Source: a virus
Lineage: Duplodnaviria > Heunggongvirae > Uroviricota > Caudoviricetes
Direction: 5' to 3' (one strand)
IMG/VR virus record: IMGVR_UViG_3300020049_013266
Span: 10,815 to 74,814 of that record
DNA length: 64,000 nucleotides
The notes under the pieces are model-generated. The model was not told the origin of the DNA and made no database searches. It saw only the letters and a list, made by a program, of their open reading frames with translations. Of this stretch, positions 18,394 through 54,737 are shown piece after piece. Position numbers and translations under genes: made by a program. Each line of letters opens with the position of its first letter. The stretch's first letter is position 1.

Positions 18394-18397
18394 ACTA

Positions 18398-27204: not shown

Positions 27205-27495
27205 TTAAGTGTTTCTACTAATTAATTTTGAATATAATTCAATTGCATATTCTTTTTGTTCTTCTGGCAACTTGTGTAATGCATACCAATACGAATTCCC
27301 AAATTTATTGTAATCTGATTTTATCTCTTTGTCCAGTTCTAACTTATGAGTCAAAGATAACTCAGAAACCCTAGTGCGAAATCCTGATAAATATGGGAAT
27401 GAGAATATAGAAACTTCTCCATTTAAAATTAGCTCTAATAAAATTTCCTGAGTATTGGTTTTTGGATTTGGATATCCATGTATTGTGTTTTTCAT
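27205..27495 (-). CDS. hypothetical protein
   Basis: 96-aa ORF. Confidence 0.45.
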   Translation of the reverse strand: MKNTIHGYPNPKTNTQEILLELILNGEVSIFSFPYLSGFRTRVSELSLTHKLELDKEIKSDYNKFGNSYWYALHKLPEEQKEYAIELYSKLISRNT

Positions 27496-30080: not shown

Positions 30081-30119
30081 GTGGCTTGTGTTTTTATGCT
30101 CTTAGCGAATAGTTACCGC

Positions 30120-30821: not shown

Positions 30822-31084
30822 CTTAATTATTGTTTTTTAATTTAATGAATCGGTTTGTTTTTTGGCAACAGCGACAATCACCATACGTTAGGCGATATTT
30901 CACCCGACATTTGGTTTTAATGTTCTGTCTAAATTTCCACAAAGGATACATTTTGAACCTTTGCATTTTCCACGTTTCCAATAAAAATTATAGATATGCG
31001 CACAAGAAGAAACATCGCCTAACAGTGGTTTGGTTTCAGCTTTTTCATTGGTTTTTAATTTATCCATTGTCTTGTATTTGTTGA

Positions 31085-31160
31085 GATTATTATTTATCCG
31101 AAAATTAGTCTTGTATCAGCACCAAGCCGAAACCCAAGCCACGAAACGTTAGCCGTCAGT
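31085..31160 (+). repeat. intergenic repeat element A (TTATCCGAAAAT...GTCTTGTATC...CCAAGCCGAAA...ACGTTAGC)
   Basis: Shares ordered sub-blocks with elements at 32140-32290 and 33400-33552. Confidence 0.6.
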
Positions 31161-31215
31161 TTGAAGAAAAGAAACTGGAAGCGATTAAAATTTAACACAT
31201 TTAAACAAATAAATA

Positions 31216-31616
31216 TGGAATTAAAACTGAAAGCTTATTCTGCATCTAATAATAATATTTGTTTTGAATATGGAACCTTAATTTTAAAAAAAAATATCCT
31301 TTTAGAATTTATCGAGAGCGAAAATGTAAACTTTCTAAAAAGCCAACACGGAGAACATTTTTTCCCAATAAAACCAAATACATACGATGTCGTTTTTTTA
31401 GATGAAACTGATGAACAATACGGAGGTTTCAATGCTAAAATTAATATCAATAATAGTTTACCTATTTATTTTTACATTAAGCTTACTCCTCCCGAAAAGC
31501 AACAACTAAAATGGATGAATAAACAAAAGTGGATTCAAAAAGGAAACAATGTGTGGTATGTTGTAACTGCTATTTTAACGATAGTAGGATTATACATAGC
31601 ATACAAAGCATTGTAA
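31216..31616 (+). CDS. hypothetical protein with C-terminal transmembrane anchor
   Basis: The listed ORF starts at TTG 31161 inside repeat A; the first ATG (MELKLK) at 31216 is preferred. C-terminal WYVVTAILTIVGLYIAY transmembrane helix. Confidence 0.45.
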
Positions 31617-31717
31617 AAATCCAAAACTTTATAAAATCATTAAACTTTTTATCTGACATAATTTCAACTTTTAGGATTTTAAAGTGGCAGAATGATTAAC
31701 CACATAATTTTATATAA

Positions 31718-32140
31718 ATGGAATACTTTTATATTTTTAAAAACATAGATTTTAATTTAATATTTAAAACTGTTTTACAATTTACATTTTTTTATATACT
31801 ATTAATTTATTGTAAACTTTTATATTACCCACAGCTTATACAGTTTAACGAGTTTGAAAAAGGAAAAATTAAAAATAAATTTATATTCTTTATTTTGAGT
31901 TTTTTATATACTTCATTAAGTTTACTAGTTATTCCATTTTTAGTTCTTTTAGCAAATTCATTTGAAAATCCCAATTTTACTGCAACTAAATATGCATTTG
32001 TATCATTTGTTATTATTCTATTATATTGTTTAAAAAAAACTTTTTTATATGCATATCTAAATGGCGAAATTATACCATCTACTATAAGTGAAATGGTAAA
32101 TAAAAATAAACAGAAACTAAATAAAAAACCGAACGGCTAA
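31718..32140 (+). CDS. polytopic small membrane protein
   Basis: 140 aa with 3-4 hydrophobic helices; very AT-rich, so the coding call is tentative. It forms a two-gene plus-strand island inside a minus-strand region. Confidence 0.4.
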   Translation: MEYFYIFKNIDFNLIFKTVLQFTFFYILLIYCKLLYYPQLIQFNEFEKGKIKNKFIFFILSFLYTSLSLLVIPFLVLLANSFENPNFTATKYAFVSFVIILLYCLKKTFLYAYLNGEIIPSTISEMVNKNKQKLNKKPNG

Positions 32141-32290
32141 CACACGCTACAAGCAATTTGGGCATTTGGCTGAATTTAAAGTTGGTCTTGTATCTGATAA
32201 ATTTGTGTTTATCCGAAGATTTGGCTTCCTTAATCCCAAACTGCTTGTAGCGCGGGAACGTTAGGGATAACCGCCTATATTGTGGGTAGT
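32140..32290 (+). repeat. intergenic repeat element B with 10-bp inverted repeat CGCTACAAGC / GCTTGTAGCG and ACGTTAGGGATAACCGCC core
   Basis: Arms at 32145-32154 and 32242-32251; core at 32259-32276. Located between convergent gene ends. Confidence 0.6.
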
Positions 32291-32649
32291 ATTTCCGAAA
32301 CCCATTTTTTAAAGTTTTCAGATTCATTTATTATTCCTTTAAAAGTTTCTAAGTGCCTTTTATCAAATGAATTTAATTCAATTCCTTTTTCTAAGAATAA
32401 TTTCGTGTATCTTTCATAAATATCCCCATCAATACTATCGTCTTTGTATTTTTCAAAAAGTTTTTCAATAATATCTTCTTGCTTATAAGTCATATTTACA
32501 CCTATATTTTCTTTGAATCCATTATAACGAATAAAGTTACTTGCGTTATAATTTAAGATACTTTGCATTAAACTTTTTTCAAAATCATTTGACAATCTTG
32601 ATTTTGAAATTTGTTCTTTTAATTTTAAAAAATCTAGTGAATTTATCAT
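32275..32649 (-). CDS. hypothetical protein
   Basis: 124-aa ORF. Confidence 0.5.
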   Translation of the reverse strand: MINSLDFLKLKEQISKSRLSNDFEKSLMQSILNYNASNFIRYNGFKENIGVNMTYKQEDIIEKLFEKYKDDSIDGDIYERYTKLFLEKGIELNSFDKRHLETFKGIINESENFKKWVSEILPTI

Positions 32650-32777
32650 TATTTATAATTTTAGTTTCGTTCGTGGTATATCCCTAACATATGCTACAAG
32701 CTATATGCAGGCGTTTTGTGCATTGATTCAAGTTTTATCTTGGCATCCGGCGTGTAGCATCCGCCGTTATGCGTGAT
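32650..32777 (+). repeat. repeat element B' (inverted orientation: TATCCCTAACAT, inverted repeat ATGCTACA/TGTAGCAT, GCCGTTATGCG)
   Basis: Contains the core in reverse orientation and a TGTAGC-type inverted repeat like B and D. Confidence 0.5.
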
Positions 32778-33041
32778 TTATGCACGACATAGCCAATAGA
32801 TATTCCAAGACTCTTTTTCTTTAGTATCTACAACACCATCATTATCTATTTTTAAAAAAGTCATTGATTTTTCCATTTCGTAACCCATAACTTTTGCTTT
32901 CCAATTCAATTTTATTTTATCTCCGTTTTTAAAATTGCATTTTGGATTGTACCACATCCTTTCCCAATCAACATACTTGAAAAGTAAACCACGCATAACA
33001 ACGTGTATAGTAAATGGCTTTTTTAGGTTTAATTTAAACAT
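32778..33041 (-). CDS. hypothetical protein
   Basis: 87-aa ORF. Confidence 0.45.
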   Translation of the reverse strand: MFKLNLKKPFTIHVVMRGLLFKYVDWERMWYNPKCNFKNGDKIKLNWKAKVMGYEMEKSMTFLKIDNDGVVDTKEKESWNIYWLCRA

Positions 33042-33100
33042 AGTTTTGTACTTTTAAGATTTAGGTTCATTCACCACAACGACGACAAAGCCGCAGGACG
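33042..33100 (+). repeat. repeat element C (GGACGTTAGTGGCAATTATC core)
   Basis: ACGTTAG core at 33089-33095 between two minus-strand genes. Confidence 0.45.
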
Positions 33101-33379
33101 TTAGTGGCAATTATCATAAACCCACATTTTCAAAAGAACGAATGCACTTGTAATGGCTTCATATTTACCTTTTTCGGTTCTGTCTTTTATTTTTTCTGAA
33201 TGCTGATATGTTCTATCAATTCTATTTTGAATTTCTTTTTCTACTTTATCAAACTTTGATTCTTGTTCTTTAGTTTGCATAATGTCTTTGATAATAGTTT
33301 CTCCTTTTTCGTCAACTAATTCGTAATGCGAAAAATCTCCATTGTCTGCGTATTTCTCAACTGAAATAAATTTTTTCAT
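33101..33379 (-). CDS. hypothetical protein
   Basis: 92-aa ORF. Confidence 0.45.
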   Translation of the reverse strand: MKKFISVEKYADNGDFSHYELVDEKGETIIKDIMQTKEQESKFDKVEKEIQNRIDRTYQHSEKIKDRTEKGKYEAITSAFVLLKMWVYDNCH

Positions 33380-33399
33380 AATATGTTTACTGTTTAAAT

Positions 33400-33552
33400 A
33401 ACTGCCACTAACAATCGCTACATTTCAGCTTTTGCATTGGGCATAAGGTTAATATTGTTTTGTATTTGTAATTATTTCGCTTATCCGAAATACTTGGCTT
33501 ATTTACTCCAAGCCGAAAGTGTAGCGATGGACGTTAATGATAACCGCCCAGT
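33400..33552 (+). repeat. repeat element D (TTATCCGAAATACTTGGCTT...CCAAGCCGAAAGTGTAGCGATGGACGTTAATGATAACCGCCC) with long-range inverted repeat ATCGCTACA/TGTAGCGAT
   Basis: Arms at 33414-33422 and 33520-33528; collinear with elements A and B. Confidence 0.6.
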
Positions 33553-36266: not shown

Positions 36267-37160
36267 TTATTTGTTTATTTCTTCAATTGCTAAAATAACT
36301 CTTGACGTAAGATAATCTTTATCGATTTGTGGCACCTCGAATCGGATAATGTTTACGTTTTCGATTCCGGTTTCTCGGTCTATATAAGGAAGTTCTCCAT
36401 CTTTAGCACGCGCTACCAACCAATAAGGTTCTGCAAGTTGGCTGTTGTATAGCTGAATATCTTCCAATTCTTCGTAATAAGGCATGAAAACAATAAGCTC
36501 GGCATATTTAGCGCCCATGATACAAGCGTTACTCACAAGCTGCCAATAATATTTCTCTCCTTCTTTAGAATCCTTTCTGATTTGTTGGATAATTTCGTTT
36601 CCGTCAATATTTGTTTTTTTAATAGCCATTATTCCATCTACGAAATCATAAAGTCTGCGGATAAGATTGTAATGGCCTTTTCTTGAAAGAGGACATTTAA
36701 TATCTGTAACAGTATCAATATTTGATTTCGGAGAACCATCATCGTTTAGTTCGATATAGGAAGCATCCGGATCAATAACGACTGTAGTAATTAGTTTTGT
36801 ACCATCTGGAGTTCCGCGCCATTCTGGATATAACGGGTGTATTTCAGTTTCCTCAGAATGTAGAATATATTCGTTAGGAAGAAGATTGTGAACAATTGGC
36901 TCGCAAAGCTTTCCCCACGCCATTGCTTTTACTTCAACATCATTTTCTAATGAATGCTTATAAAAACGTTCAATGATACATTCTTCAACATAAGTGTAGA
37001 AGGGTGCGCCAGGAGAATCAATAGTTGTTCTGCGACCGGAAGGGTTTTCTAACTTATATTGTTTCTGTTCTTCTTCCGTCATTGTTCGAGTGCCATTTGT
37101 AGTCAGCGCCACAATTTCACTAGAAGTAATCATCCCTGTTCTTTTATTTGATAATGCCAT
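36267..37160 (-). CDS. YqaJ/lambda-exonuclease-like PD-(D/E)XK recombination exonuclease
   Basis: GTPDG...TDIKCPLSRKGHY matches G.PD.......E.KCP......H of YqaJ-like exonucleases; 297 aa. Confidence 0.5.
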   Translation of the reverse strand: MALSNKRTGMITSSEIVALTTNGTRTMTEEEQKQYKLENPSGRRTTIDSPGAPFYTYVEECIIERFYKHSLENDVEVKAMAWGKLCEPIVHNLLPNEYILHSEETEIHPLYPEWRGTPDGTKLITTVVIDPDASYIELNDDGSPKSNIDTVTDIKCPLSRKGHYNLIRRLYDFVDGIMAIKKTNIDGNEIIQQIRKDSKEGEKYYWQLVSNACIMGAKYAELIVFMPYYEELEDIQLYNSQLAEPYWLVARAKDGELPYIDRETGIENVNIIRFEVPQIDKDYLTSRVILAIEEINK

Positions 37161-37869
37161 CTTTCCACTTTTTTAAGTCCCTAAGTATTTTATCGTAACT
37201 GTTTTTTTCCTGTTTGTCAATGATTCTTTTTACATTATCAAATTCGTCTGCGGGAATAAAATCTTCTATTTCTTCGAAAAGCTCCAAAATTTCTAAATAT
37301 TTAGAATCTGAATCGTTGCTTGTGTCAACTTTTATTTCCCTGAAATCATCTTTATTATAAATGTCAGCAGCAATACCAATTTCTGCGGCACATTTTTTTA
37401 AACAATCAGTAGCAGCGGATTTAAAGTCGTTACCGATTGAAAGAGGTTGTTGGCTTGGTCTGGTTTCCTGCACTTGTTTTCCGTACTTTTCTACCATTTT
37501 AGGAGTTCCATCAGGATTGAAAACTTTTTCAGTCTTGTAGATTATTTCCTTGTTTCCGTATTGGGTTTTTACAATTTTCTTCCCATTGCTTCGACATGTT
37601 AATCTTCCTTTTACAATCACTTCTCCAAACGATACTTGATCGTCTATGATTTCGAAATCCCAGTCCCATCCAAACATAAGGTTTAGACATTTTTTAATAT
37701 ATCCTCCTGATACATAATCCCAAGTTCCTCCACCTTTGGCTGTACGTTGCTTAACATACTGCTTTGGAGTTTTTTTAAGAATTAAGGCTAATTGTTTTTC
37801 GTTTAAACTATTAGTATCAACTAAGCTTAAATCTTCTGCGCTAACTAAAGCTAAATCATTTTCTGCCAT
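37144..37869 (-). CDS. candidate single-strand annealing protein (recombinase partner of the exonuclease)
   Basis: 241-aa protein translationally coupled upstream of the YqaJ-like exonuclease; assignment is by gene context only. Confidence 0.3.
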   Translation of the reverse strand: MAENDLALVSAEDLSLVDTNSLNEKQLALILKKTPKQYVKQRTAKGGGTWDYVSGGYIKKCLNLMFGWDWDFEIIDDQVSFGEVIVKGRLTCRSNGKKIVKTQYGNKEIIYKTEKVFNPDGTPKMVEKYGKQVQETRPSQQPLSIGNDFKSAATDCLKKCAAEIGIAADIYNKDDFREIKVDTSNDSDSKYLEILELFEEIEDFIPADEFDNVKRIIDKQEKNSYDKILRDLKKWKDGIIK

Positions 37870-40302: not shown

Positions 40303-40593
40303 TTAATTAAATTTTGGTTTGTAAGCGGTGATTACTGGTTCTCTGTTGTATGTGTACTGCTTTGTTCCGCAAATAGCACATTCTCTGCTCCATCGAGCTT
40401 TTTCGACATCCCTGTATCCGGCAAAACTCCAGTGAGGATCTGATCCCGCTCCATCCTGAACACTTCCGTATCCTTCTTTGACAGTTTCAGGATCATAAAT
40501 AGCTGCTTTGAATGAGTGGGTACAATTTTTTATTTTGTTTTTCTCCGACTCAATCTGTCTTTGTAATTCGTTTATTTTATCATTAGGATTCAT
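40303..40593 (-). CDS. hypothetical protein
   Basis: 96-aa ORF downstream of the integrase gene; 11-nt overlap. Confidence 0.4.
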   Translation of the reverse strand: MNPNDKINELQRQIESEKNKIKNCTHSFKAAIYDPETVKEGYGSVQDGAGSDPHWSFAGYRDVEKARWSRECAICGTKQYTYNREPVITAYKPKFN

Positions 40594-41836
40594 TACTGTT
40601 CCATTTGTTATGCATTATTTCAGCATATTCTTGTTTGCTTTTTTTGTTATAATGATTTAACATATTGCTGTTTTTGCTCCATCCCATAATGGCTGACAAA
40701 GTTTCGTTGTCAACTTTTCCATAGAAGTTGGACGCGAATGATTTGCGACAAACGTGCGAGGAAATAAGTTGCCACTTCCTGTAATAGCCAAAAACCTTAC
40801 GCTTACGTTTTTTATCAAACAACTTCCCGTACATCTGCTTATCTATTTCACAGATTTGGCAAATTGTTTTAATGTGAATATTGAAATCGGTTTTACTTAT
40901 TTTTGGTGGCAGATTACCGAAGTTTGATTCAATTACTTTTTTTAATACCGGATGAATGGGAACCACGATTCTTTTGCCTGTTTTCTGCGTTTTAATTTTG
41001 AATACACCATCTGAAATATTAGAAGTGTCTAATTTAGAGAAATCCCCAAATCTCATTCCTGAAAACACGCCAACCAAGAAGTTTTGCTTTGTAATATCCA
41101 ATTCGTAATTATCTGAAAAATCGTGATCAATAATGCTTTGTATTTCGGCTTCATTCAAATAAACTCCCTCAGCATCTTCGTCTTTATCGAAATAGATTCT
41201 TTGTTTAAACGAATTACTTACTTCGATATTGTGTTCGAGTGCGCGATTAAGGAAAAATCGGAACCGGCCAACGTGTCTTTCAATTGTGGAAACCTGGTAA
41301 AACTCAGTTTCTAAATAATCCGCAAATGATTTCAGGTCCGAAACGCGAATATTTCTCAACTGCAGTCGCTCTCCGATTACTGATTCATATTCCGAAACAA
41401 TGGAGACGAATTTTTTGTACTGGTTATGCAACGGCAATCCCATTTTTTTCTTACTTGATACATTCCAATCGTCAGCATGATTTTCCAGCCACCACAGCGC
41501 AAAATCTACTAAATATATAGTATGTGCCGGATTAATCATTTTTAACTCTTCTTTAGGGCGATTAAAGCTGTTTTTTATGGCAGATGCAACCCAGAATTTA
41601 TCAACTATAATTCCCCTGCTAAAATCGTTATTGTACTGTTTTAGAAGATCTGTTTTTAATTGTTGCAGCGAAATGTTCAATCCCGGATTATTAATAACGC
41701 TCTGATTATCTAAATCCCATTCAGCATCTTTCAACATGATATTTGTTGAACATGAAATATCCAATTTAGAATATCTCATTCTAACAAGGAGTTTCTTAAC
41801 CTCCTTTCTTCCTTGTAATGAAAATGTAATGTTCAT
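40583..41836 (-). CDS. int: tyrosine-type site-specific integrase
   Basis: 417 aa with a catalytic-domain signature: GMRFGD (Arg I), HVCRKSFASN (H..R box II), MGWSKNSNMLNHY (H/W...Y catalytic Tyr); N-terminal arm/SAM-like region. Confidence 0.7.
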   Translation of the reverse strand: MNITFSLQGRKEVKKLLVRMRYSKLDISCSTNIMLKDAEWDLDNQSVINNPGLNISLQQLKTDLLKQYNNDFSRGIIVDKFWVASAIKNSFNRPKEELKMINPAHTIYLVDFALWWLENHADDWNVSSKKKMGLPLHNQYKKFVSIVSEYESVIGERLQLRNIRVSDLKSFADYLETEFYQVSTIERHVGRFRFFLNRALEHNIEVSNSFKQRIYFDKDEDAEGVYLNEAEIQSIIDHDFSDNYELDITKQNFLVGVFSGMRFGDFSKLDTSNISDGVFKIKTQKTGKRIVVPIHPVLKKVIESNFGNLPPKISKTDFNIHIKTICQICEIDKQMYGKLFDKKRKRKVFGYYRKWQLISSHVCRKSFASNFYGKVDNETLSAIMGWSKNSNMLNHYNKKSKQEYAEIMHNKWNSNES

Positions 41837-42084
41837 GATTTCCTTTTTTTAAATTACCAATCTAATCCGTGAAGAATTTTTATACTCGTAACTGTAACAG
41901 AATACTCTTCTCCTAATATCTGTATCATTTCTTTTGATAAAATATCAAATCTTTCTCTGTCCAGTTTCTTAGCGGAAACATGAAGTTCTTTACTGAATTC
42001 TTTTTGTAAACTAACTTTCCTATCGTTGAAATTTTTAAGAGCTGTTCTATACGTGTAGTATTTTTGTTTTTATTTTACTCATGA

Positions 42085-42294
42085 CTATTTCTCTTTTTCA
42101 ATTAAATCATTCAATACTCTTAAATTATTCCCTGCTATAGAACCAGGAATAACACCAGTAGACCTGAAAGAAATCAATCCTTGGCTTATTGTCCGTCTGT
42201 TCGATAATTTCAGCAACATATTCTGAAACATTTTCTCTACTTTTTTAAAGGTTTTTGTTCCTTCAATTTCTTCGTTTGATACAATGAATTCCAT
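42085..42294 (-). CDS. hypothetical protein
   Basis: 69-aa ORF downstream of the HTH gene. Confidence 0.4.
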   Translation of the reverse strand: MEFIVSNEEIEGTKTFKKVEKMFQNMLLKLSNRRTISQGLISFRSTGVIPGSIAGNNLRVLNDLIEKEK

Positions 42295-42298
42295 AAGG

Positions 42299-42538
42299 TT
42301 ATTTTGTATTAGTGTTGGTTATTAATTCGATTAAATCTATTCCAAGAGCCATGAAAATTGTGTGTATTTTATCAAAAGGAACTCCCTTGTGAGCGCCATT
42401 TTCAATACGGGAAATCAACGTGTGCTGATCTGTGTTTCCAGACATTATAACAGACAAATCTTTCTGAGTAAGCTTTTTACTCTTTCGTTTAGATTTTATT
42501 ACAACGCCTATCTGAATTGCAGTATTTTCTTTTGCCAT
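42299..42538 (-). CDS. XRE-family helix-turn-helix transcriptional regulator (Cro/CI-like)
   Basis: LTQKDLSVIMSGNTDQHTLISRIENG is a canonical HTH_3 motif; located near the integrase. Confidence 0.6.
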   Translation of the reverse strand: MAKENTAIQIGVVIKSKRKSKKLTQKDLSVIMSGNTDQHTLISRIENGAHKGVPFDKIHTIFMALGIDLIELITNTNTK

Positions 42539-42554
42539 GGTTTGTTTTTAATTA

Positions 42555-42746
42555 TTAAAAAGGGCAATCTGATTTTTTTGCTTTAGGGATTAGATATTCA
42601 TAATCCCTTCTAATTTTCTCCTGAATCGCTTTTCTTATAAAATCAGCGACATTTACCTGATAACTATCTAACTTTTTCAAAGTATTATGCTGAATTTCTG
42701 TAATCTTAATTACTTTGACTTTCGTATATTTTATAGACTTCCCCAT
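42555..42746 (-). CDS. hypothetical small DNA-binding-like protein
   Basis: 63-aa ORF. Confidence 0.35.
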   Translation of the reverse strand: MGKSIKYTKVKVIKITEIQHNTLKKLDSYQVNVADFIRKAIQEKIRRDYEYLIPKAKKSDCPF

Positions 42747-42829
42747 GAATAAGTAATACTTTTATAGCTGTTAGCGAATAGTTATATTCCAGCTTCGAGC
42801 AACTTTCTGGCGAAAGCTACTCTGGCTGT

Positions 42830-43027
42830 TTATTTGTTGCATTTTCTTTCTAATTGTCTTTTACACCATTCTTCGGCTTCTTCGACTGTTTTAGCAGGTT
42901 GTGCTTTAAAAAAATCATCCAAAGTTGGTTTTACTTCGTCATACTTTTTCGATTTGTCCCAATCCTCTAAAATCTTTTCTTCTGTATTATTCTTAAAATA
43001 TGCTTTAAGTTCTTCAAGTAAGTTCAT
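42830..43027 (-). CDS. hypothetical protein
   Basis: 65-aa ORF. Confidence 0.4.
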   Translation of the reverse strand: MNLLEELKAYFKNNTEEKILEDWDKSKKYDEVKPTLDDFFKAQPAKTVEEAEEWCKRQLERKCNK

Positions 43028-43119
43028 ATCAGTAATTTTTAAATTAATAATTGTCGTAAAAAAGCCGAGAATATAACAGCTACTACAATCAATAGCTTCA
43101 TTTGGCTTTGGTTATTATT

Positions 43120-43200
43120 GTTTTGTGCTTGCATTGTTCGGGCAAACTCCGATAATTTGGCAACTCAGCACGCTACTGTTTGTAGTAGCAAAACGTTATG
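43120..43200 (+). repeat. repeat element E (hairpin GCTACT-GTTTGT-AGTAGC, AAACGTTATGCG core)
   Basis: Core at 43193-43200, overlapping the stop of the 43196..43537 gene. Confidence 0.5.
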
Positions 43201-43537
43201 CGTTATTGTAGCGAGCCTTGAATAAATCATAGGCTTTATCCATTTCGCCACCTTCTGAATTTAATAAATTAATAAGGTCGTTATCTTTATCAAGCACTTT
43301 CCAGAAATCTAAATCACAACATTCACGTTTTGTATTTCTATCAAAGTCAGGAATATCTTCTTCTGTTTCTTGGTCAGTATCGAAGTATTTTGAGCAGGTC
43401 GCTTCTTCTGCATAAATACCTCCATAATCACTATCCCCAACTTCCTCGTGCTGAAAATGTTGGCAAAAAGAACAACAACGCATAACACTTGCTAAACAAG
43501 ATTCGGGTTTGGTTTTTGTATTTAAAGTCTGTTTCAT
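43196..43537 (-). CDS. Cys-rich acidic hypothetical protein
   Basis: 113-aa ORF. Confidence 0.45.
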   Translation of the reverse strand: MKQTLNTKTKPESCLASVMRCCSFCQHFQHEEVGDSDYGGIYAEEATCSKYFDTDQETEEDIPDFDRNTKRECCDLDFWKVLDKDNDLINLLNSEGGEMDKAYDLFKARYNNA

Positions 43538-43544
43538 TTTTGTA

Positions 43545-43620
43545 ATTATTAGTTATTAATCGAAAATCTGTTTTTTATTTTGTCCCGAACCTCGCTTAGC
43601 AAGAGACCGTTAGCAAACAG
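43545..43620 (+). repeat. repeat element F (GACCGTTAGCAAACAG core)
   Basis: Core at 43606-43614. Confidence 0.45.
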
Positions 43621-43905
43621 CTACACAATACCGTCCAAAGAATAAGCGGTTAATATCGATTCCTCTTCAATTGGACATAATACATATCTTTCTGGAGAAT
43701 GATAATATCTCGATTCTGCTTTAACGTAAGCTTGTTTTAATGCTTCCTCAACGTGCATTTTTGCAAATTCAATCATACAATCAATAATATCAGATTCGTC
43801 TAAATTATCTATTATGAGCCTAAAATCACATCCTTCGTTTCCTTCTTTTATGAAATCTATTGCTTTTCTCATTTTTTTGTAAATATTTAGCCGATTTGCT
43901 AACAC
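43621..43905 (-). CDS. hypothetical protein
   Basis: 94-aa ORF. Confidence 0.45.
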   Translation of the reverse strand: MLANRLNIYKKMRKAIDFIKEGNEGCDFRLIIDNLDESDIIDCMIEFAKMHVEEALKQAYVKAESRYYHSPERYVLCPIEEESILTAYSLDGIV

Positions 43906-44035
43906 TGCATAACAGTAATTTAGGCATCAGGCTTGATTTATAATTTGTTTTGTACTTGCGAACTTGGTCTTTAACCTCGATAGATTAGGTTTACTTTTCC
44001 TAAACTACTGTTATGCTTTAACGTTAGCAGTTATA
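43906..44035 (+). repeat. repeat element G (inverted repeat GCATAACAGTA 43907-43917 / TACTGTTATGC 44006-44016; TAACGTTAGCAG core 44021-44030)
   Basis: 11-bp arms about 90 nt apart, followed directly by the ACGTTAGC core. Confidence 0.55.
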
Positions 44036-44395
44036 CTACCGTAGACCATCATCTTCACGTTCACAAGGAATACTATCATTAAAATAATATCCTTTTTCCA
44101 TACAATGATAAGTTTGTTCATTAACATAAAAATCTTCTGTAATTGTATCTTTTCCTTTAATAGCAGTAACAGTTAATATAAAATCCTCATCATCAAATCC
44201 CGTATGTGGCATCATAATAAAAGACTTTCCGCATGGCATTGAAGTAAAATATGTATAAGTTCTTGGTTCTTCATAAGTTTTTGATACAATTTTTCCGCTG
44301 TGAATTTCGTGACCACAACCAATAAAAAGTACAACTACTAACAGCACATAAGCAAAAGCAATTAATTGGGTCTTAAATTTAAAGTTTGTTTTCAT
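44036..44395 (-). CDS. putative lipoprotein
   Basis: N-terminal signal-like MKTNFKFKTQLIAFAYVLLVVVLFIGCG with a lipobox-like LFIGC. Confidence 0.45.
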   Translation of the reverse strand: MKTNFKFKTQLIAFAYVLLVVVLFIGCGHEIHSGKIVSKTYEEPRTYTYFTSMPCGKSFIMMPHTGFDDEDFILTVTAIKGKDTITEDFYVNEQTYHCMEKGYYFNDSIPCEREDDGLR

Positions 44396-44477
44396 TTTTT
44401 AATTATTTATGATTAATTTAAAGTTTAGTTATTATCGGCAATTGCCTTCGATTATCTGCAAAGCGTTAGCGATAATG
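44396..44477 (+). repeat. repeat element H (GGCAATTGCC palindrome, AAGCGTTAGCGATAATGCTAAG core)
   Basis: Core at 44462-44470. Confidence 0.5.
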
Positions 44478-44915
44478 CTAAGAAACTGCATCTAACAAAT
44501 CTTGTTTTGTAATAATGAATTTGTCTTTATAATTTTCATAGTAAAGTTCAGGGAATAAAGCATTAATCTTATCAAAATCTATATTTCCAGATAATACTTT
44601 CATTATTTTTTCAACCTCGTTTTCGTTGTTGTTTTCAGAAAATCTATCATCGTCTATTCTTTCGGCTATCCAGTCGGCAGATAATGATAATATCGGCTCT
44701 AATTTTGAACCTTTGCAATTAAAAGTCGCATCATCTTCTAAGTCTTCTATTTGTTCTTTTTCTCCGTCAAAAACTCTATCGATAAAGTCTTCTAAATCGG
44801 TGTAAAAATCACCGTCTTTAAAGAAGTTCTCCATAAAACGAGAAGCACTATCGCTAACAGCCGATAAGCAAGATTGGTCATTAGTTTTTTCTGAATTATT
44901 GTCTTGTGTTTGCAT
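44478..44915 (-). CDS. acidic hypothetical protein
   Basis: 145-aa D/E-rich ORF. Confidence 0.45.
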   Translation of the reverse strand: MQTQDNNSEKTNDQSCLSAVSDSASRFMENFFKDGDFYTDLEDFIDRVFDGEKEQIEDLEDDATFNCKGSKLEPILSLSADWIAERIDDDRFSENNNENEVEKIMKVLSGNIDFDKINALFPELYYENYKDKFIITKQDLLDAVS

Positions 44916-44989
44916 AAATTTGTTTTTAATTTAATTATTAGTTTTTATTTTTACCAACCTCGCCTATCGCCAGAACGTTAGCAGTAATG
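44916..44989 (+). repeat. repeat element I (GAACGTTAGCAGTAATGCTAAGG core)
   Basis: Core at 44975-44982; nearly identical to the cores of H and G. Confidence 0.5.
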
Positions 44990-45253
44990 CTAAGGAATAG
45001 CGGAGAAAATCAAATCTTCTTCATAAGTGTATTTATTGTCGTTTTCAGATATCAAATAAATTGTAAAACACAAGGTATTTGATATTATTTGTTTATGAAT
45101 CATTACGGTTTTTACTTTGAACTTTGTGTAGCATTTTGTTATATTGCTTTTATAAAACAATTCAACCCCTGTTAAATCATTGTAAATAGAAGCACTACTG
45201 CTAACAACGGCTTGACTTTCAGCTTTACATTGGGTCTTTAATTTATTGCTCAT
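44990..45253 (-). CDS. hypothetical protein
   Basis: 87-aa ORF. Confidence 0.4.
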   Translation of the reverse strand: MSNKLKTQCKAESQAVVSSSASIYNDLTGVELFYKSNITKCYTKFKVKTVMIHKQIISNTLCFTIYLISENDNKYTYEEDLIFSAIP

Positions 45254-45340
45254 TTTTTATTATTTTTTATGGTTTTTAATCCGTTACATTCTTTTGTGTT
45301 TGCACAGCCGAAAATCAAGCCGCAACCGTTATCAGGAATA
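45254..45340 (+). repeat. repeat element J (CCGAAAATCAAGCCG...AACCGTTATCAGG)
   Basis: Shares CCGAAAAT and AAGCCG blocks with element A plus a degenerate core. Confidence 0.4.
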
Positions 45341-45622
45341 CTATCTAAATGATTTAAGTTCATTAGGAGCGAAAGACTTTCCTTTGCTTAAAAAATTGGT
45401 TACTGAATCGTAAAAGCGTTCGAATAATGTTTTCATGTTAATGATTTTTAGTTTGTATGAAATTAAAAGGGATCCAAATATAATCATAGCGATAATAAAC
45501 ACTGAGCTATTAATAGATACCGATGGTTTACAATGAGGATTGTTTTGCCTTCCTGCAACCGCACACCAACAGGGTGAAAATATCTCACAGTCTCCTGAAA
45601 AAGGTGGAGGTGGTGGATTCAT
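45341..45622 (-). CDS. hypothetical membrane-anchored protein
   Basis: 93-aa ORF with a hydrophobic segment. Confidence 0.4.
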   Translation of the reverse strand: MNPPPPPFSGDCEIFSPCWCAVAGRQNNPHCKPSVSINSSVFIIAMIIFGSLLISYKLKIINMKTLFERFYDSVTNFLSKGKSFAPNELKSFR

Positions 45623-45900
45623 GACATTTGTTTATTATCGTGTAATTGATGTATTATTTTTTCTGGCTCTGGCGAATACGTTTCATCAATTTTTAAAATT
45701 AAAGCCGCATATTCTTTTTTCTTTGCTAAAAAGAAGTTTTGCAATTTGTCTTGTAAAGCATTATTTACTTCCAGAGTATGCAAAGGCGATGATTTGTAAA
45801 TCATGTAATTAAAAAGGCTCTCTGCTTCTGATTCTGCAGTTAGTTTGCTATTTGTAAAATGATTGATACACTTTACGAAGTACATAAGTAATTTTTTCAT
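45619..45900 (-). CDS. hypothetical protein
   Basis: 93-aa ORF; ATGA coupling to the next gene. Confidence 0.4.
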   Translation of the reverse strand: MKKLLMYFVKCINHFTNSKLTAESEAESLFNYMIYKSSPLHTLEVNNALQDKLQNFFLAKKKEYAALILKIDETYSPEPEKIIHQLHDNKQMS

Positions 45901-46014
45901 GATAATATACGTTTTAATAAAAGTCCTAAAATTAATATGATTAATATGGTGGCAGGGTATTTGTATTCAGCCTCTTTTTCGTAGTCGGGTTCCTGGTTTT
46001 TCATAAAAATATTT

Positions 46015-46197
46015 TTAAACTGATTCAGTCACGTAATCTTCAAACATTTTGCAAGATAAACTCCCTATCCTTTTTCTGGTTTTAGGAGAATATATCTGGT
46101 ACATTTCACGCACTTGTTCAGCGTAAATTTCATCTTTTTCAACCAACAAAACTTTTTCTAATAAAGAAAACGGTTTTACAACTATGTATTTTTTCAT
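46015..46197 (-). CDS. hypothetical protein
   Basis: 60-aa ORF. Confidence 0.35.
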   Translation of the reverse strand: MKKYIVVKPFSLLEKVLLVEKDEIYAEQVREMYQIYSPKTRKRIGSLSCKMFEDYVTESV

Positions 46198-46224
46198 GAT
46201 TTTAATTTATTTTTTACGTTTTTA

Positions 46225-46623
46225 TTATTCCACATTTTTACAAAATCCACACAGGCAGTATTTACTAACTCGCTTCGTTAAATTATAAGCGTCTGCCGAA
46301 ATATCAATTGAGGCGTTTACTTCACCGCAAAGCCATTCACCGCTTAACACATCATTTAATACTGTTTGTGCCTGTTCTTCGCTACATTCGTACTTACTTT
46401 TAACATCGTGAACGCTCCAAAGGTTGTCAACGAAATACCCGTTATCCTTTAAAAATTGCTTTGCTGATTCTATAGTATAAATAGAGTCGGATTTTAAAGA
46501 ATGGTTTTCCGTTCCTTTAACAGGGTAAAATATTCCGTTAACTTTTTCCCACATCCACAAATCAGGGTTTTCTATTCCGCTTGAATCGTGAACATAATTT
46601 TTTGCTTCGTTATATGGTATCAT
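46225..46623 (-). CDS. hypothetical protein
   Basis: 132-aa ORF. Confidence 0.45.
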   Translation of the reverse strand: MIPYNEAKNYVHDSSGIENPDLWMWEKVNGIFYPVKGTENHSLKSDSIYTIESAKQFLKDNGYFVDNLWSVHDVKSKYECSEEQAQTVLNDVLSGEWLCGEVNASIDISADAYNLTKRVSKYCLCGFCKNVE

Positions 46624-46658
46624 TTTTTTGTTTTAAGGTTGTTGTTTTAATTTATTGA

Positions 46659-46970
46659 TTAGTAATAGCTTTCTATTTTACTAATACACCAATCTTCAAA
46701 TGATTGGTTGTTATTATTTCTCGTTCTGTTTTGCGCCCCTTCTTCGTATTTTTCACGCCACAAATAACTCATGTCTATAGAAACAGAATCGTGTTCAATT
46801 GCGCTCTCTAAATCTTCTTTATCTTCAATCAGTCCCTCGGCATCTTCACGAACGTAATAAAGTTCCACGTTGCCTTTTTCGTATAAATCTCTTGCCGTTT
46901 CTTCATCCAGACCAATCCAATTGTATTGGTTTCCTTCTTGGTCTCTTTGTTCTATAATGTGCGTTTTCAT
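46659..46970 (-). CDS. hypothetical acidic protein
   Basis: 103-aa ORF. Confidence 0.45.
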   Translation of the reverse strand: MKTHIIEQRDQEGNQYNWIGLDEETARDLYEKGNVELYYVREDAEGLIEDKEDLESAIEHDSVSIDMSYLWREKYEEGAQNRTRNNNNQSFEDWCISKIESYY

Positions 46971-47159
46971 AATGATTTAATTTAAAATTGCTGTTAATAT
47001 CCCAACTATAGAAAAGAACGCCCAAATTAAAGGAATCATTCTTTGTACTTCGCTCTGACTTCTTGGCTTGGTTCTCATGATTTTAATCTTCAAAATAATT
47101 ACGGATAATTAATATAATTACAAAGCATGCAATAAAGCCAAATATAAAATTTATCATAT

Positions 47160-47447
47160 TTATAAGTTTTTAAGTAAAATGTCATTTATTTCTTTTGGAG
47201 ATAATCCAAATAAAGGAATGCTAATTGATTTGCCATTTTTTCCATCTTCATAGGCTCTTATCTCTATCACAGTTCTATTTCCAGACAAAAAAGGCTTTAT
47301 CTTTGTATTTTCTAAAGTCTTAATTACCCATTCTTTGACCTTCTCTTGTGTAGTATCACAAAGGGTTATAAATTCTGTTTCTTCTCCAATTTTTTTAACA
47401 TTTATTCTAATTAAAAAGGGTGTTTTAGGTTGTGTGTATAATTTCAT
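47160..47447 (-). CDS. hypothetical protein
   Basis: 95-aa ORF. Confidence 0.4.
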   Translation of the reverse strand: MKLYTQPKTPFLIRINVKKIGEETEFITLCDTTQEKVKEWVIKTLENTKIKPFLSGNRTVIEIRAYEDGKNGKSISIPLFGLSPKEINDILLKNL

Positions 47448-47583
47448 AATTTTTAATTTTGTTGAATTTGTAAATCAATTTTACCTAAATAGGATATTAA
47501 ACTCGAAGCACTCAAAAAATGTGTTTCGTACAATCCGAAATTAAGAGTATAAAACCCTTTGTTAAATGTTAGTTTCATGGTTT

Positions 47584-47817
47584 TTAAAGTTGAGGTTCGC
47601 CAAATATCAATTTTTCAACATCTGCATTAGTGTAGCAGTCTACATTTTCCGGCAATTGCTTTGCTCGGTTGAGTATTTCTTTTTCGGGGCTTATCCTTCC
47701 TAAATTATAACAAACAAGGCATCCGAATGCCCCTAAAAAGACAACACATATAAACATTGCTGCCTGTATTTTAAGAGATCTTTTAAGATCTTCTAATTGT
47801 GTGTGTAAATTTTTCAT
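47584..47817 (-). CDS. small membrane protein
   Basis: 77 aa with one transmembrane helix (AAMFICVVFLGAFGCLVCYNL). Confidence 0.4.
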   Translation of the reverse strand: MKNLHTQLEDLKRSLKIQAAMFICVVFLGAFGCLVCYNLGRISPEKEILNRAKQLPENVDCYTNADVEKLIFGEPQL

Positions 47818-47930
47818 ATTGATATTTTTTTTAAGATTAATTTTTTAGTTAATTATTCCCCACCGAAGCAGGGAGTTAGGTATGTACCTACGGCTTATAG
47901 CCTTATTACGAAAAGAATTTCAATCCGCAA

Positions 47931-48161
47931 CTACTCATTAAAATTATTCATTTTTGCTATTAAATAGTATCTTTGCATACTTCCAGACCAAATAAAAATA
48001 CCTCCTAATTCTTCATCGTATCTAATCCCGAAAGTTGAAATTATATTTTTAGGAGTTTCCTGGATTTGAACAAAATTAGATTTTTGGCTTAATTGCTCAT
48101 AAGTTTCTAAAGAAATCAATTTTGTACGTTGCTCTAATTGATAGGTTGTTAAATGCGCCAT
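47931..48161 (-). CDS. hypothetical protein
   Basis: 76-aa ORF. Confidence 0.4.
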   Translation of the reverse strand: MAHLTTYQLEQRTKLISLETYEQLSQKSNFVQIQETPKNIISTFGIRYDEELGGIFIWSGSMQRYYLIAKMNNFNE

Positions 48162-48264
48162 GATAAGAAATAGCTGTTTTATCCTGTTGCTTCTTCAGTT
48201 TTGTGTTACCGCCCCCGAAGGGACACGCTTTGAGCCTAAAACCTTTTTATTGTCGCTCAAACGA

Positions 48265-48942
48265 CTATTTTATTCTTGAAACGTTGTAAATATCAAACAT
48301 TTTTCCACCTGCAACACTTTGCCATTTTAAACCAATAGCCTTAAATATTGAAGGATAACAACTAACACCAACTCCACCTTCGAAATAAGGTAAAACGCCA
48401 TACCCTGAACCATACCCAAAAATATCTCTATTTGATTTGTTTTTGTTTGCAGATTTATAAAGATTTGCTTTTAATACATCACTTTGGTTTAAAGCCTCAG
48501 CTATTGCAGTGCTTAATTTATCATAACCACAACCAGAAACATAACGACTTTTAAAATACTCACAATCGGTATTGCCTTTAGCATCTTTAAAAGAAACCCA
48601 TACTTCAGCAGTAGGATTTAATCCCCACATTTTAGACTTTGCCCACTCAACCGTTATTTTGATTTCAGTTATTTTAAATAACTTATTTTCAACACTTTTA
48701 ACTTCTTTTATCTTTTCAGAAAGTCTCAAGGCACTTTTTTCTTTTATTTTAGAAACAAGAACTTTTTTAAATTTACTAAAAGTCATTTCTTCAATTCCTT
48801 TAATCTCTTTTTTAGAAAATAAACCTCTATAGTAAGCATAATCCAAAAATGATTTTACATCTTTTTTTTCTTCATTAAAAGACAAGCTTTTTTTAAGTTC
48901 TACTTTTGATTCTCTATTTAATTTTGCTATAAGTGTTTTCAT
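48265..48942 (-). CDS. hypothetical protein (225 aa)
   Basis: Longest ORF in the small-gene region; Gly-rich C-terminal half. Confidence 0.5.
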   Translation of the reverse strand: MKTLIAKLNRESKVELKKSLSFNEEKKDVKSFLDYAYYRGLFSKKEIKGIEEMTFSKFKKVLVSKIKEKSALRLSEKIKEVKSVENKLFKITEIKITVEWAKSKMWGLNPTAEVWVSFKDAKGNTDCEYFKSRYVSGCGYDKLSTAIAEALNQSDVLKANLYKSANKNKSNRDIFGYGSGYGVLPYFEGGVGVSCYPSIFKAIGLKWQSVAGGKMFDIYNVSRIK

Positions 48943-48975
48943 GATGTTGTATTTTAAAGGTTGATGTTTGTTTGA

Positions 48976-49203
48976 TTATTTTTTAATTTGTTCAAATTTT
49001 GTAATATCCAGATTTAAATATTCAGCGTGGTACTTTATCTCAAATGGCCCGCAATACTCAATAATATCGTCTTTAATCAGCGTTATTTGGTTGAATTGAT
49101 TAAAAGAATCAATATAGTAGGAAATAACTATTTCGGTAAACTCACAGGGAACATCTTTTCTAAGGTCGATAAATCCGTTGCCTATCTTTTTATTTGCACT
49201 CAT
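48976..49203 (-). CDS. hypothetical protein
   Basis: 75-aa ORF. Confidence 0.4.
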   Translation of the reverse strand: MSANKKIGNGFIDLRKDVPCEFTEIVISYYIDSFNQFNQITLIKDDIIEYCGPFEIKYHAEYLNLDITKFEQIKK

Positions 49204-49435
49204 GACATTTGATTTTAAGTAAGATTTTAATTATTTTACCCGAACAATAATTTGTATTGTTTATTGGTACATTCCGAAAGAACAACGTTAACGCTTTCAA
49301 CATCTTCCAATTCAAGTATTTTAGCAATCAAATTAGATTCGCTTAATTTTAAAGGATTTGGATATTGAAAACCATCTTCTTTCGTTACTGTGACAAATAA
49401 ATATTTTTTCATGATGCTAATTATTTAAGTTAATG

Positions 49436-49678
49436 TTAATTTTTAGTGTGACTATTTATTTCGTAATATATAATACAAACCTCATTATCTCCCTTTTCGT
49501 AATCATCCCAACAACCACAAGTACAACTATAATCATCTTCCCAACTTACTAGTTTATTGTTTTGATCTTTAAAAACGTGATTATCATTATGTCCACACTC
49601 TTTAATACACCCGTTTTCATCTTTATGACCTGACAAATAATTAGGTGCTAAAATTCTGCAAATGCTTTTCTCTTTCAT
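49436..49678 (-). CDS. Cys-rich small protein
   Basis: 80 aa with C...C.H...H...C.CGC pattern. Confidence 0.4.
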   Translation of the reverse strand: MKEKSICRILAPNYLSGHKDENGCIKECGHNDNHVFKDQNNKLVSWEDDYSCTCGCWDDYEKGDNEVCIIYYEINSHTKN

Positions 49679-50010
49679 AATATCAAACCTTGGTTAAATC
49701 ATTAAATACTACAATTGCCTGACGCAACGAGAAATGTTCGCCAATGCAATCAAAACCGTTTTCCAGAATAACATATCTGTTTTTGTCCGTGTCCGCATAA
49801 TGATACGGGGCAATCTCAAAATCACCTATTTTCTTGCTGTAAATTTTCATGATAATAAGTATTAGTATTAATGTTTAGGCAGTTTGTCCGCTTCGCTTTT
49901 TGCATCGTCCCAATACTTAAAACTTTTTTGTATTAGTAATTTTCCCGTTGTTTTATCCTGAACGTAAAAATAACCGCTATGGCTTACAATTTTGTACATA
50001 ATAATATGAT

Positions 50011-50292
50011 TTAATGATTAATATAATTTGGGTTGTCGGTCGGTATTGCAAAACCGTTGTTACTATCAACGATTTTCATTGCTTCATGTTCGGATATATT
50101 ACCCTCTTTTCTCCAACGTGTTGAACTCATAGAATAATCTGAATTTGCGCCAAAAGAATAAACAATACTTGTAAAATCTCCAACGCCTACAGACACATAT
50201 CCATTTCTAAATGATTTGCGGTAACATTTGTATTTTAAATCTTTGTTACCATCCCAATCAATTAAAGTCCAGTTTTTATACGTGGTTTTCAT
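50011..50292 (-). CDS. hypothetical protein
   Basis: 93-aa ORF. Confidence 0.4.
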   Translation of the reverse strand: MKTTYKNWTLIDWDGNKDLKYKCYRKSFRNGYVSVGVGDFTSIVYSFGANSDYSMSSTRWRKEGNISEHEAMKIVDSNNGFAIPTDNPNYINH

Positions 50293-50311
50293 AATAAGTA
50301 TATTTAAAAGA

Positions 50312-50560
50312 TTAGTTTAATGTATTGTTGTTAAATGCTTCATAACATATACTTCTAATAGTAGAATCTAACATTGTTTTAGAATAGTATATTTTATTTG
50401 TTTCAAGTAATGCGTAAAGAGTTTTGATGTCCGCATTTTCAATTAATAATTCAAAAGTATTTTTCATGATGATAGTATTAAAATTAGTTCCTCGATTCCG
50501 TTTCAAACGTAGCCTTATAGACAAATCGAGGATTGTTCTTTTACTGCATTTCGCCAACAT
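50312..50560 (-). CDS. hypothetical protein (first gene of the long minus-strand block)
   Basis: 82-aa ORF facing the large noncoding region. Confidence 0.4.
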   Translation of the reverse strand: MLAKCSKRTILDLSIRLRLKRNRGTNFNTIIMKNTFELLIENADIKTLYALLETNKIYYSKTMLDSTIRSICYEAFNNNTLN

Positions 50561-54471: not shown

Positions 54472-54557
54472 TTAAGTGTTGGCTGAGTGGTTGAAAGCAA
54501 CGGGCGACCATACCCGTGGGAGGTAATTACCCCGAAGGTTCGAATCCTTCACACTTA
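54472..54557 (+). tRNA. tRNA-like gene (type II, Ser-like body) with non-canonical anticodon loop CGACCAU
   Basis: Acceptor UAAGUGU/ACACUUA, D-arm GCU-GAGUGGUUGAA-AGC (Ser-like), anticodon stem ACGGG/CCCGU with a loop lacking U33, long variable arm, T-arm GAAGG-UUCGAAU-CCUUC; no encoded CCA. Confidence 0.45.
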
Positions 54558-54737
54558 TCTTAGCAAGGTATAAACATTAAGGAAAATTCGTCACAGGTTT
54601 ATATTAAGTTGCAGACGGACCTACATGCTACAGGTTAAAAAGGCTTACTCATAAAGTCTAGCAAGCACAAACTAACGAGGAAAGCCGGATGCGATAACAT
54701 CAATTCCGGTTTAATTTAACCAAAAACCAAAATAACC

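Follow-up and report, generated by a model that had tools for sequence, protein, structure and literature searches.

In a 64,000-nucleotide stretch of the caudoviricete record IMGVR_UViG_3300020049_013266 from IMG/VR (positions 10,815 to 74,814; this whole stretch is hereafter the window), small minus-strand genes are separated by repeated elements with a CGTTAGC core. Judging from the sequence, we think it likely that the small genes of 43194-45343 and 30111-33413 are integron-type cassettes and that the intergenic elements are attC-like, structure-specific recombination sites. The best reading of the window is that it carries two Bacteroidota-type attC/cassette arrays without an integrase of their own, i.e., clusters of attC sites lacking integrases (CALINs). 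We directly observe the architecture of the elements, the covariation of their arms, their strand asymmetry, cassette-sized insertions and deletions (indels) with junctions in a conserved box, and chromosomal arrays lying beside a recombinase gene; the site-specificity of the recombination and the enzyme responsible for it are what we infer.

Paired arms and a spacer hairpin

Each unit is delimited by two boxes, read on the minus (coding) strand: the R box (TAGYATTACYGCTAACG) at the 3' end of a gene, and the L box (consensus TGTTAGCRGTAGTRCT), its inverted partner, near the 5' end of the same gene. L lies 50 to more than 1100 nt upstream of its R, either 18-67 nt before the start codon or 41-65 nt inside the open reading frame (ORF), and the two arms covary. 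A second helix, H, occupies the spacer: its 5' strand (H5'), which follows the R of gene X after a linker of 2-4 nt, pairs with ~20 nt (H3') just before the L of gene Y. H is imperfect and 17-20 bp long, with a loop of 33-35 or 64-79 nt; in units whose L is internal to the ORF, the longer loop additionally takes in the start codon of Y along with ~13 initial codons. The whole site, of ~110-150 nt, is an imperfect palindrome with a variable loop and a conserved structure, H covarying at 19 of 20 positions. A strict detector (TGTTA...TAACG, at least 14 of 15 pairs, the wobble at position 6) recovered eight such cognate units, every one of them on the minus strand of the window, as against a mean of 0.075 (maximum 1) in 40 shuffles.

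The original prediction had recognized these elements by their core. The six spacers that it listed are all present, with the core on the plus strand in each (CGTTAGC at 43608, 44022, 44464 and 44976; CCGTTATC at ~45325; AACGTTATGC at ~43192), and it was right that all copies have the same orientation and lie between minus-strand genes, and that they are kin to the first cluster, where the same units recur at 30111-33413. Reverse-complemented, the TAATGCTAAG tail that it described gives the box TAGCATTA..., and the TAG of this box terminates the upstream minus-strand gene. The 7-mer core alone is marginally enriched (10 found versus 4.4 ± 2.1 expected), and the identifying features, namely the partner arm near the 5' end of the gene and the hairpin in the spacer, were absent from that account.

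Positions 3-17 of R pair with L in the 63 non-redundant units, with compensatory changes at seven positions; for instance, where the stop codon is TAA instead of TAG, the partner C in L becomes T. Across the 17 positions the 63 units show 851 Watson-Crick, 152 G·T and 2 A·C pairs, counts that are partly circular in that the arms were chosen by complementarity. Two wobbles are invariant, a T·G at position 6 (62/63 units) and a G·T at position 17 (61/63). In these units TAAC at R13-R16 pairs with GTTA at L2-L5 without variation, and R17 is G and L1 is T in 61 of the 63. The resulting 7-mers are YGCTAAC/GTTAGCR, with CCTAAC/GTTAGG and CATAAC/GTTATG as variants; they contain the AAC and GTT of the integron inverse core (RYYYAAC) and core (GTTRRRY), and fit the degenerate positions of these in part. 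When H and L/R were scored jointly in a 32-unit alignment, 95.2% of positions were paired versus 67% in shuffles and 30-48% in slid controls, and changes had occurred on both sides in 27 of 35 pairs; the covariation score was 0.694, a value reached in none of 500 shuffles, versus 0.165; these figures share the partial circularity. Further, the arms of one gene pair with each other at 14.72/15 positions, as against 10.64/15 for the adjacent R(X)/L(Y) (n = 117), and the own start/stop duplexes reach -25 to -31 kcal/mol versus -14 to -18 kcal/mol for non-cognate pairs. This contrast between own-arm and adjacent-arm pairing fits the ‘own core site’ rule of integrons.

Inverted repeats of 15-17 bp round each ORF, with a tyrosine recombinase gene 1.3 kb from the array, might also denote invertible segments (invertons or a shufflon) or the terminal inverted repeats of transposons. 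We hold this to be highly improbable: exchange at a point between positions 6 and 17 would yield an A·C at position 6, which is seen in 0/63 units; covariation unit by unit is not expected of transposase-bound ends; and the ORF lies on the opposite strand in a mere 2 of the 164 viral units among the loci listed in the survey below.

The original prediction had offered two functions for the elements, a unit of modular gene exchange or a promoter-terminator module. For the latter speak the presence of one element per gene in a fixed orientation and a AAACTTTAAAT box 5-25 nt before many start codons. However, there are no terminator-like sites (0 found), sigma-70-like sites are not enriched (17 versus 13.9 ± 3.3), inspection by eye found no Bacteroidetes-type TTG / TAnnTTTG pair in the spacers, and the conserved boxes have pairing partners at distances that can exceed 1 kb, i.e., they are covarying strands of helices rather than linear boxes. 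Hence, a promoter-terminator module before each gene is very improbable, and this half of the proposal falls. The AAACTTTAAAT box itself, situated inside the attC-like loop or just after L, is unlike the Bacteroidetes TTG / TAnnTTTG promoter; it recurs as a conserved (GCAC)N AAACTTTAAAT box at 44408-44418 of the window and in many IMG/VR loci (e.g., L017, L027, L029 and L058) and, going by its sequence and placement, could either be a promoter peculiar to the phage or signal translation initiation. Where H3' and L fall within the coding sequence, as at 44843-44875, 45190-45217 and 44327-44355 of the window and in loci L007, L058, L082 and L110, they specify an N-terminal leader (for example ...PLLHIADVSGSAL) ahead of methyltransferase catalytic domains. 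As H3' and L thus stand inside ORFs of unrelated proteins, the recombination site would impose a peptide sequence on them.

Some structures of smaller compass were tried and discarded. A local RNA hairpin of box 1 (TAGCA-TTAC-TGCTA) is lost in divergent copies such as TAGCATTGCACCTAACG, and RNAalifold gave no covariation for it; for a pseudoknot joining box 1 to the ‘GCAGT’ loop, no correlation with Y10 was seen. Recoding of the stop codon was likewise rejected, as there is no CUA suppressor tRNA and readthrough would add three codons only.

Probable exchange among phages and arrays in chromosomes

An exact-pattern scan of IMG/VR found at least 119 viral loci, and 164 L/R arm pairs were detected among the 119 listed. 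Of the 120 matches listed, 56 have their TAG as the in-frame stop codon of an ORF no shorter than 40 codons, and 28 others are chance matches inside long ORFs. The neighboring genes, judged by sequence motifs, very often code for DNA methyltransferases of several classes, with one N6/N4-methylase-like cluster present in at least 32 loci among the matches listed. Contigs that have an upstream gene and its box in common diverge fully directly after GCTAACG, and the ends of BLAST homology concentrate at box positions +10 to +19, i.e., around R+17. The comparison of related contigs thereby places the breakpoints at the elements, as foreseen under the exchange half of the original prediction. That half is also borne out by a one-unit indel: the flanks of loci L050 and L014 are 100% identical, and what separates the two is a single 219-nt unit made up of H, a loop with an ATG, L, a 58-codon ORF and R. 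The junction lies inside the common TGCTAACG, where (A)CGTTAGC(A) contains G|TT, and the exact crossover point is not fixed by it. Between loci L007 and L110 the difference is a block of 1018 nt, again at a boundary of this kind. Among cultured phages, the Flavobacterium siphovirus vB_FspS_mymlan6-1 (locus L121, MN812227.1) has eight detected units at ~2821-8084 on the minus strand, three of which enclose DNA methyltransferase genes (gp007, gp009 and gp014). Its structural genes differ in type from those of the window phage, which suggests that the cassettes cross phage lineages.

Breakpoints within a conserved box could also arise if the elements were recombination linkers without a dedicated enzyme, offering microhomology to a phage single-strand-annealing protein, as proposed for the promoter-early stem-loop (PeSL) cassettes of T4-type phages. 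Consistent with this, the window codes for a Rad52-like annealing protein (37144-37869) and most of the viral loci listed have no travelling integrase. We nevertheless deem it improbable, since it leaves unexplained the unit-specific covariation of two helices, the invariant wobbles, the strand asymmetry and the recombinase-linked chromosomal arrays.

These arrays emerged from a scan of genomes, which found the same arms in contigs of Flavobacterium, Kaistella, Pedobacter, Chitinophagaceae, Bacteroidales and Ignavibacteria. In Bacteroidota chromosomes the invariant G·T wobbles are on the same strand of the arms as in phages. The ORFs, on the other hand, are opposite to the arms in 53 cases and on the same strand in 36 in the genome contigs, versus 125 same and 2 opposite in the viral contigs listed; the ‘same’ cases of the genome contigs, many of them on short contigs and some beside methyltransferase-sized ORFs, may be phage-derived. 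Thus, with chromosomal ORFs opposite to phage ORFs on the same arms, the wobble asymmetry follows the DNA site and not transcription. Read in the orientation of the ORF, the chromosomal units show CGTTAGCR...ORF...YGCTAACA-hairpin, the canonical layout of a cassette, and the G·T wobbles are on the strand opposite the ORFs.

At locus L131, the array is situated ~480 nt from the gene for a 347-aa tyrosine recombinase, which scores 233.6 with the model NF040815 (‘site-specific tyrosine recombinase/integron integrase’; cutoff 220) and whose family is conserved across Flavobacterium. In Flavobacterium terrisoli (locus L244, JARGNA010000005.1:105854-126897; array at 10001-21044 of the locus), a 347-aa Xer/IntI-like recombinase gene has an array directly downstream and co-oriented with it, consisting of at least 14 small co-oriented ORFs without a Pfam match. 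Their spacers are ~90-260 nt long, with one pair of ORFs 25 nt apart, and contain the same sites; eleven units were detected, whose ORFs and G·T wobbles are on opposite strands. The spacers of this array also have a conserved loop sequence in common (TTCACGAAAAACRTTTATCTTTAACAGAAAAT).

The chromosomal arrays bear directly on whether the fold acts in RNA. Under such a reading, the L/R pairing would close each cistron by a long-range 15-bp helix and the H loop would display the initiation region, serving to insulate or stabilize cistrons or to mark processing points in a polycistronic early transcript, with the DNA mosaicism as a by-product. Several observations accord with it: in phages it is the mRNA strand that folds, with G·U-type pairs as its departures from Watson-Crick pairing; L avoids -18 to +40 around the start codon, which falls in the H loop or just after L; the stop codon is exactly at the 5' edge of the helix; and a Pistol ribozyme stands in the corresponding place behind one more gene of the array. 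Our literature searches for published long-range 5'-3' mRNA helices in phages gave general analogies only. Against it stand the identical arms with the same asymmetry but with ORFs on the opposite strand in the recombinase-linked chromosomal arrays, whose mRNA would have A·C pairs. Moreover, no ribozymes were found in 15 other loci with units, and in many units L and H3' are inside the coding sequence, where cleavage would destroy the mRNA. An RNA-level element is, therefore, an unlikely primary explanation, and the fold may have a secondary RNA role in phages.

The ribozyme at 48204-48266 (minus strand; 62.8 bits versus a gathering score of 34.5) has its start at the TAG that terminates gene 48265-48942 and lies in the same minus-strand small-gene array as the units. 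It accounts for the supposed degenerate copy of the repeat near 48230 (GTTACCGCCCCCGAAGGG), which is no copy. It was also the sole match at E <= 10 in a scan of 41800-50500 against Rfam, in which the repeats themselves matched no ribozyme or other RNA family; that the repeats are self-cleaving ribozymes was accordingly rejected.

Likeness to integrons and points against it

In mechanistic terms, the putative attC-like site would consist of an R box ending in ...YGCTAAC-G, a linker of 2-4 nt, the H hairpin with a variable loop of 34-75 nt and an L box starting with T-GTTAGCR.... The invariant AAC and GTT would be the counterparts of the inverse-core and core sites of integrons (RYYYAAC and GTTRRRY), and the complementarity between the start of a cassette and the inverse core of that cassette extends to 15 bp here, as opposed to 6-7. 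The wobble-bearing strand, the minus strand of the window, would fold as single-stranded DNA (ssDNA) and correspond to the attC bottom strand; excision and insertion would occur at CG|TTAGC, by an IntI/Xer-like tyrosine recombinase presumably supplied by the host. In ssDNA folding of 44843-44992, the minus strand reaches -16.6 kcal/mol (z -2.5) and forms the R/L plus H hairpin, as against -8.3 kcal/mol (z +0.3) for the plus strand; in a second site the difference between the strands was weak. Under this assignment the phage ORF is on the attC bottom strand, which is unusual; it starts inside the attC-like loop or just downstream of L and stops at the opening triplet of the R box.

The likeness to integrons, including sedentary chromosomal ones such as the VCR (Vibrio cholerae repeat) arrays of Vibrio, comprises these features: one small and mostly unannotatable ORF per unit; an imperfect palindrome of ~100-150 nt with AAC...GTT ends, a covarying structure and a variable loop; a 5' end that complements its own inverse core; one strand folding better than the other, clearly so in one site and weakly in another; cassette-sized indels; and chromosomal arrays that follow a tyrosine recombinase gene. 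The sites differ from those of integrons in the 15-bp complementarity of the R arm, a second conserved box, the two invariant G·T wobbles and the absence of obvious extrahelical bases, and the system differs in a chromosomal recombinase that is Xer-like and below the cutoff of the IntI model and in a phage ORF that is on the bottom strand and overlaps the site. Two other modular systems invite comparison. The pdif (Xer) modules of Acinetobacter plasmids are likewise discrete gene modules between inverted sites with presumed Xer-type movement, but their 28-bp XerC/XerD sites are double-stranded, without hairpin or covariation, whereas the sites of the window are folded, structure-conserved hairpins. 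The PeSL cassettes also have repeats between small accessory genes, hyperplastic regions and mosaic boundaries; however, they combine a host-type promoter with a local stem-loop, whereas the boxes of the window pair across a gene and lack a promoter or terminator signature.

CALINs in virulent phages were first reported in 2023, in a handful of genomes (Qi et al. 2023, PMC9892861). In Polaribacter phage P12002L, a virulent phage of Flavobacteriia, predicted attC sites flank the two DNA methyltransferase genes of a CALIN (PMC9892861). One of these, P12002L_attC1, which was detected by HattCI (PMC9892861), has the exact R-H-L pattern described here (TGCTAACG-GCTAC-GGCTAAACGGTCG...GCCGTTTTAGCC-AT-TGTTAGGC; PMC9892861). 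That study predicted two sites per phage by generic attC models and called their orientation ‘divergent’; it has no account of pairing between the distant arms of one cassette, of ORFs in inverted orientation or of a connection with arrays in Bacteroidota chromosomes (PMC9892861). Nor did our literature searches find a description of long-range own-arm pairing, of inverted phage ORF orientation or of Bacteroidota chromosomal arrays.

Several findings weigh against the integron-type reading. P12002L_attC1 was not recombined by IntI1, whereas attC2 did recombine (PMC9892861). Clear extrahelical G/T bases and an unpaired central spacer were not evident in the sites, where a one-sided 2-4 nt linker is seen, as is a recurrent C·A mismatch within H. 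The indel between L014 and L050 could alternatively have originated by deletion at an 8-bp microhomology. The recombinase of L131 scores 208 with TIGR02249, versus a cutoff of 265, with the match split over two stretches, and its closest solved relatives are XerA and then IntI4; the chromosomal recombinase is, therefore, not a canonical IntI. Further, no integron integrase was found in the window. The tyrosine integrase that it does encode (40583-41836, minus strand; a Phage_integrase domain with a SAM_5-like domain), 1.3 kb downstream of the array and on the same strand, matches generic Phage_integrase/Xer models only, far below their cutoffs, has a homologue in just 1/119 viral loci listed, and has no annotated counterpart in mymlan6-1, which carries units nonetheless. 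The window likewise shows no complete integron, i.e., an adjacent intI with the IntI-specific additional domain, an attI and the cassette promoter Pc.

We rejected this integrase as the cassette recombinase because it does not resemble IntI and does not accompany the units; it is probably the lysogeny enzyme of the phage. Since the window is without an integron integrase, its arrays classify as CALINs, and with an integrase that is generic and does not travel with the units, and a mymlan6-1 without one, the exchange would depend on a host enzyme or on microhomology.

The window, its units and their wider meaning

The window, from a phage of Flavobacteriia type, has a G+C content of 33.6% and a phage-like gene content, with genes for a portal, virion proteins, a GroEL-like chaperonin, a DNA polymerase III beta subunit, the Rad52-like annealing protein and the tyrosine integrase. 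Its structural proteins are 38-46% identical to those of the Flavobacterium ‘elemo’ podoviruses, with Cellulophaga phages matched in the same search; by these proteins the closest cultured relative is Flavobacterium phage elemoC, which has no units. A megablast of the region against phage records gave no match.

From ~42000 to 49700 all genes are small and on the minus strand. Five successive genes end in TAG, the first triplet of a shared box that reads TAGYATnnYYGMTAACG on that strand. In this array TAG stops always precede a long intergenic spacer (74-248 nt), and the remaining genes stop at TAA or TGA; 7 of the 8 post-TAG spacers hold the shared box or a predicted RNA structure, the spacer types being an attC-like site, the Pistol ribozyme, a predicted three-hairpin spacer and an unstructured spacer of 248 nt. 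The three-hairpin spacer (47818-47930, minus strand, 113 nt), which follows the TAG stop of gene 47931-48161, shows three successive hairpins (GGCUAUAAGCC, UAGGUACAUACCUA and CCCUGCUUCGGUGGGG) and matched no Rfam family at E <= 10.

The units of the second cluster, all on the minus strand, run from A to F. Unit A, with gene 45341-45622, has an R box at 45327-45343 (TAGTATTCCTGATAACG) whose TAG is the stop codon, and is decaying, its partner arm being degenerate (~45586-45611). The site between A and B spans 45190-45323 (H5' 45302-45323, H3' 45207-45228) and holds the ATG of gene B in its loop. Unit B (gene 44990-45253) has its L box at 45190-45206 (TGTTAGCAGTAGTGCTT) and its R box at 44976-44992 (TAGCATTACTGCTAACG), with 15/15 pairs between them. 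The B/C site (44843-44969; H5' 44953-44969, H3' 44862-44878) again has the start codon in the loop, and leads into unit C (gene 44478-44915; L box 44843-44859, TGTTAGCGATAGTGCTT; R box 44464-44480, TAGCATTATCGCTAACG), which also shows 15/15 pairs. The loop of the C/D site (44327-44459; H5' 44439-44459, H3' 44344-44364) contains the AAACTTTAAAT box together with the start codon. In unit D (gene 44036-44395), the L box (44327-44343, TGTTAGTAGTTGTACTT) is within signal-peptide codons and makes 15/15 pairs with the R box (44022-44038, TAGTATAACTGCTAACG), including a compensatory A7-T change. The H helix of the D/E site (43888-44016), formed by H5' 43999-44016 and H3' 43907-43924, is the inverted repeat GCATAACAGTA/TACTGTTATGC that the original prediction singled out, and it is real. 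Unit E has its L box at 43888-43904 (TGTTAGCAAATCGGCTA) and an R box (43608-43623, TAGCTGTTTGCTAACG) that is 1 nt shorter and pairs with it through a 1-nt bulge; its gene is 43621-43872, starting at the ATG at 43872 and not the GTG at 43905. Following the E/F site (43471-43603; H5' 43584-43603, H3' 43488-43507), unit F (gene 43196-43537; L box 43471-43487, TGTTATGCGTTGTTGTT; R box 43194-43210, TACAATAACGCATAACG) retains 15/15 pairs despite a divergent core, its stop being a TAA inside TAACG. B, C, D and F are the strict units of this cluster. The strict units of the first cluster, on the same strand, are L 33397-33413/R 33099-33115 (gene 33101-33379), L 32984-33000/R 32765-32781 (gene 32778-33041), L 31008-31024/R 30886-30902 and L 30753-30769/R 30111-30127 (gene 30120-30821); a further unit there, with approximate arms, encloses gene 32275-32649 (minus strand).

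Elsewhere in the window, ARAGORN reports a tRNA-like gene at 54473-54559 (plus strand) with a four-base anticodon (acca), to which it assigns no identity, and five ordinary tRNA genes cluster at 8915-9349 (minus strand). Unusually long Rfam tRNA matches (80-106 nt) also occur in viral contigs L105 (9713-9968 and 10859-10938) and L093 (7628-7733), on the same strand as the cassette arrays there. The GroEL-like chaperonin gene (59181-60743, minus strand) adjoins one for a NUMOD4/HNH homing endonuclease (60762-61265, minus strand), and a T5orf172/MUG113 nuclease-like protein is encoded at 27492-28256.

Integrons have been regarded as nearly absent from Bacteroidetes, IntegronFinder 2.0 having yielded only In0 elements (an integrase with no detected cassettes) and a single complete integron (PMC9024848). 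The architecture described here is found both in viral contigs and in chromosomal arrays (Flavobacterium, Kaistella, Chitinophagaceae, Bacteroidales and Ignavibacteria), and we suggest that generic attC models miss the Bacteroidota sites. If the units are active cassettes, they would represent a new attC family, probably missed by current detectors; they would explain how the hypervariable early regions of Flavobacteriia phages are assembled, and provide a route for gene flow between phages and their hosts, with the small ORFs as candidate anti-defence genes. The cultured mymlan6-1, with its units, offers an experimental system for direct tests. More tentatively, and as a conjecture that we hold at less than even odds, Bacteroidota and their phages might share a large integron-like system, undescribed so far as our searches went, served by an Xer-like recombinase in place of a canonical IntI; the phages would maintain a mirror-image pool whose ORFs occupy the bottom strand and begin within the loop. 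The fold would then double as an ssDNA recombination site and a display for mRNA initiation, and the pool as a bank of counter-defence genes (methyltransferases and small proteins), the counterpart of the bacterial integrons that bank anti-phage defence genes.

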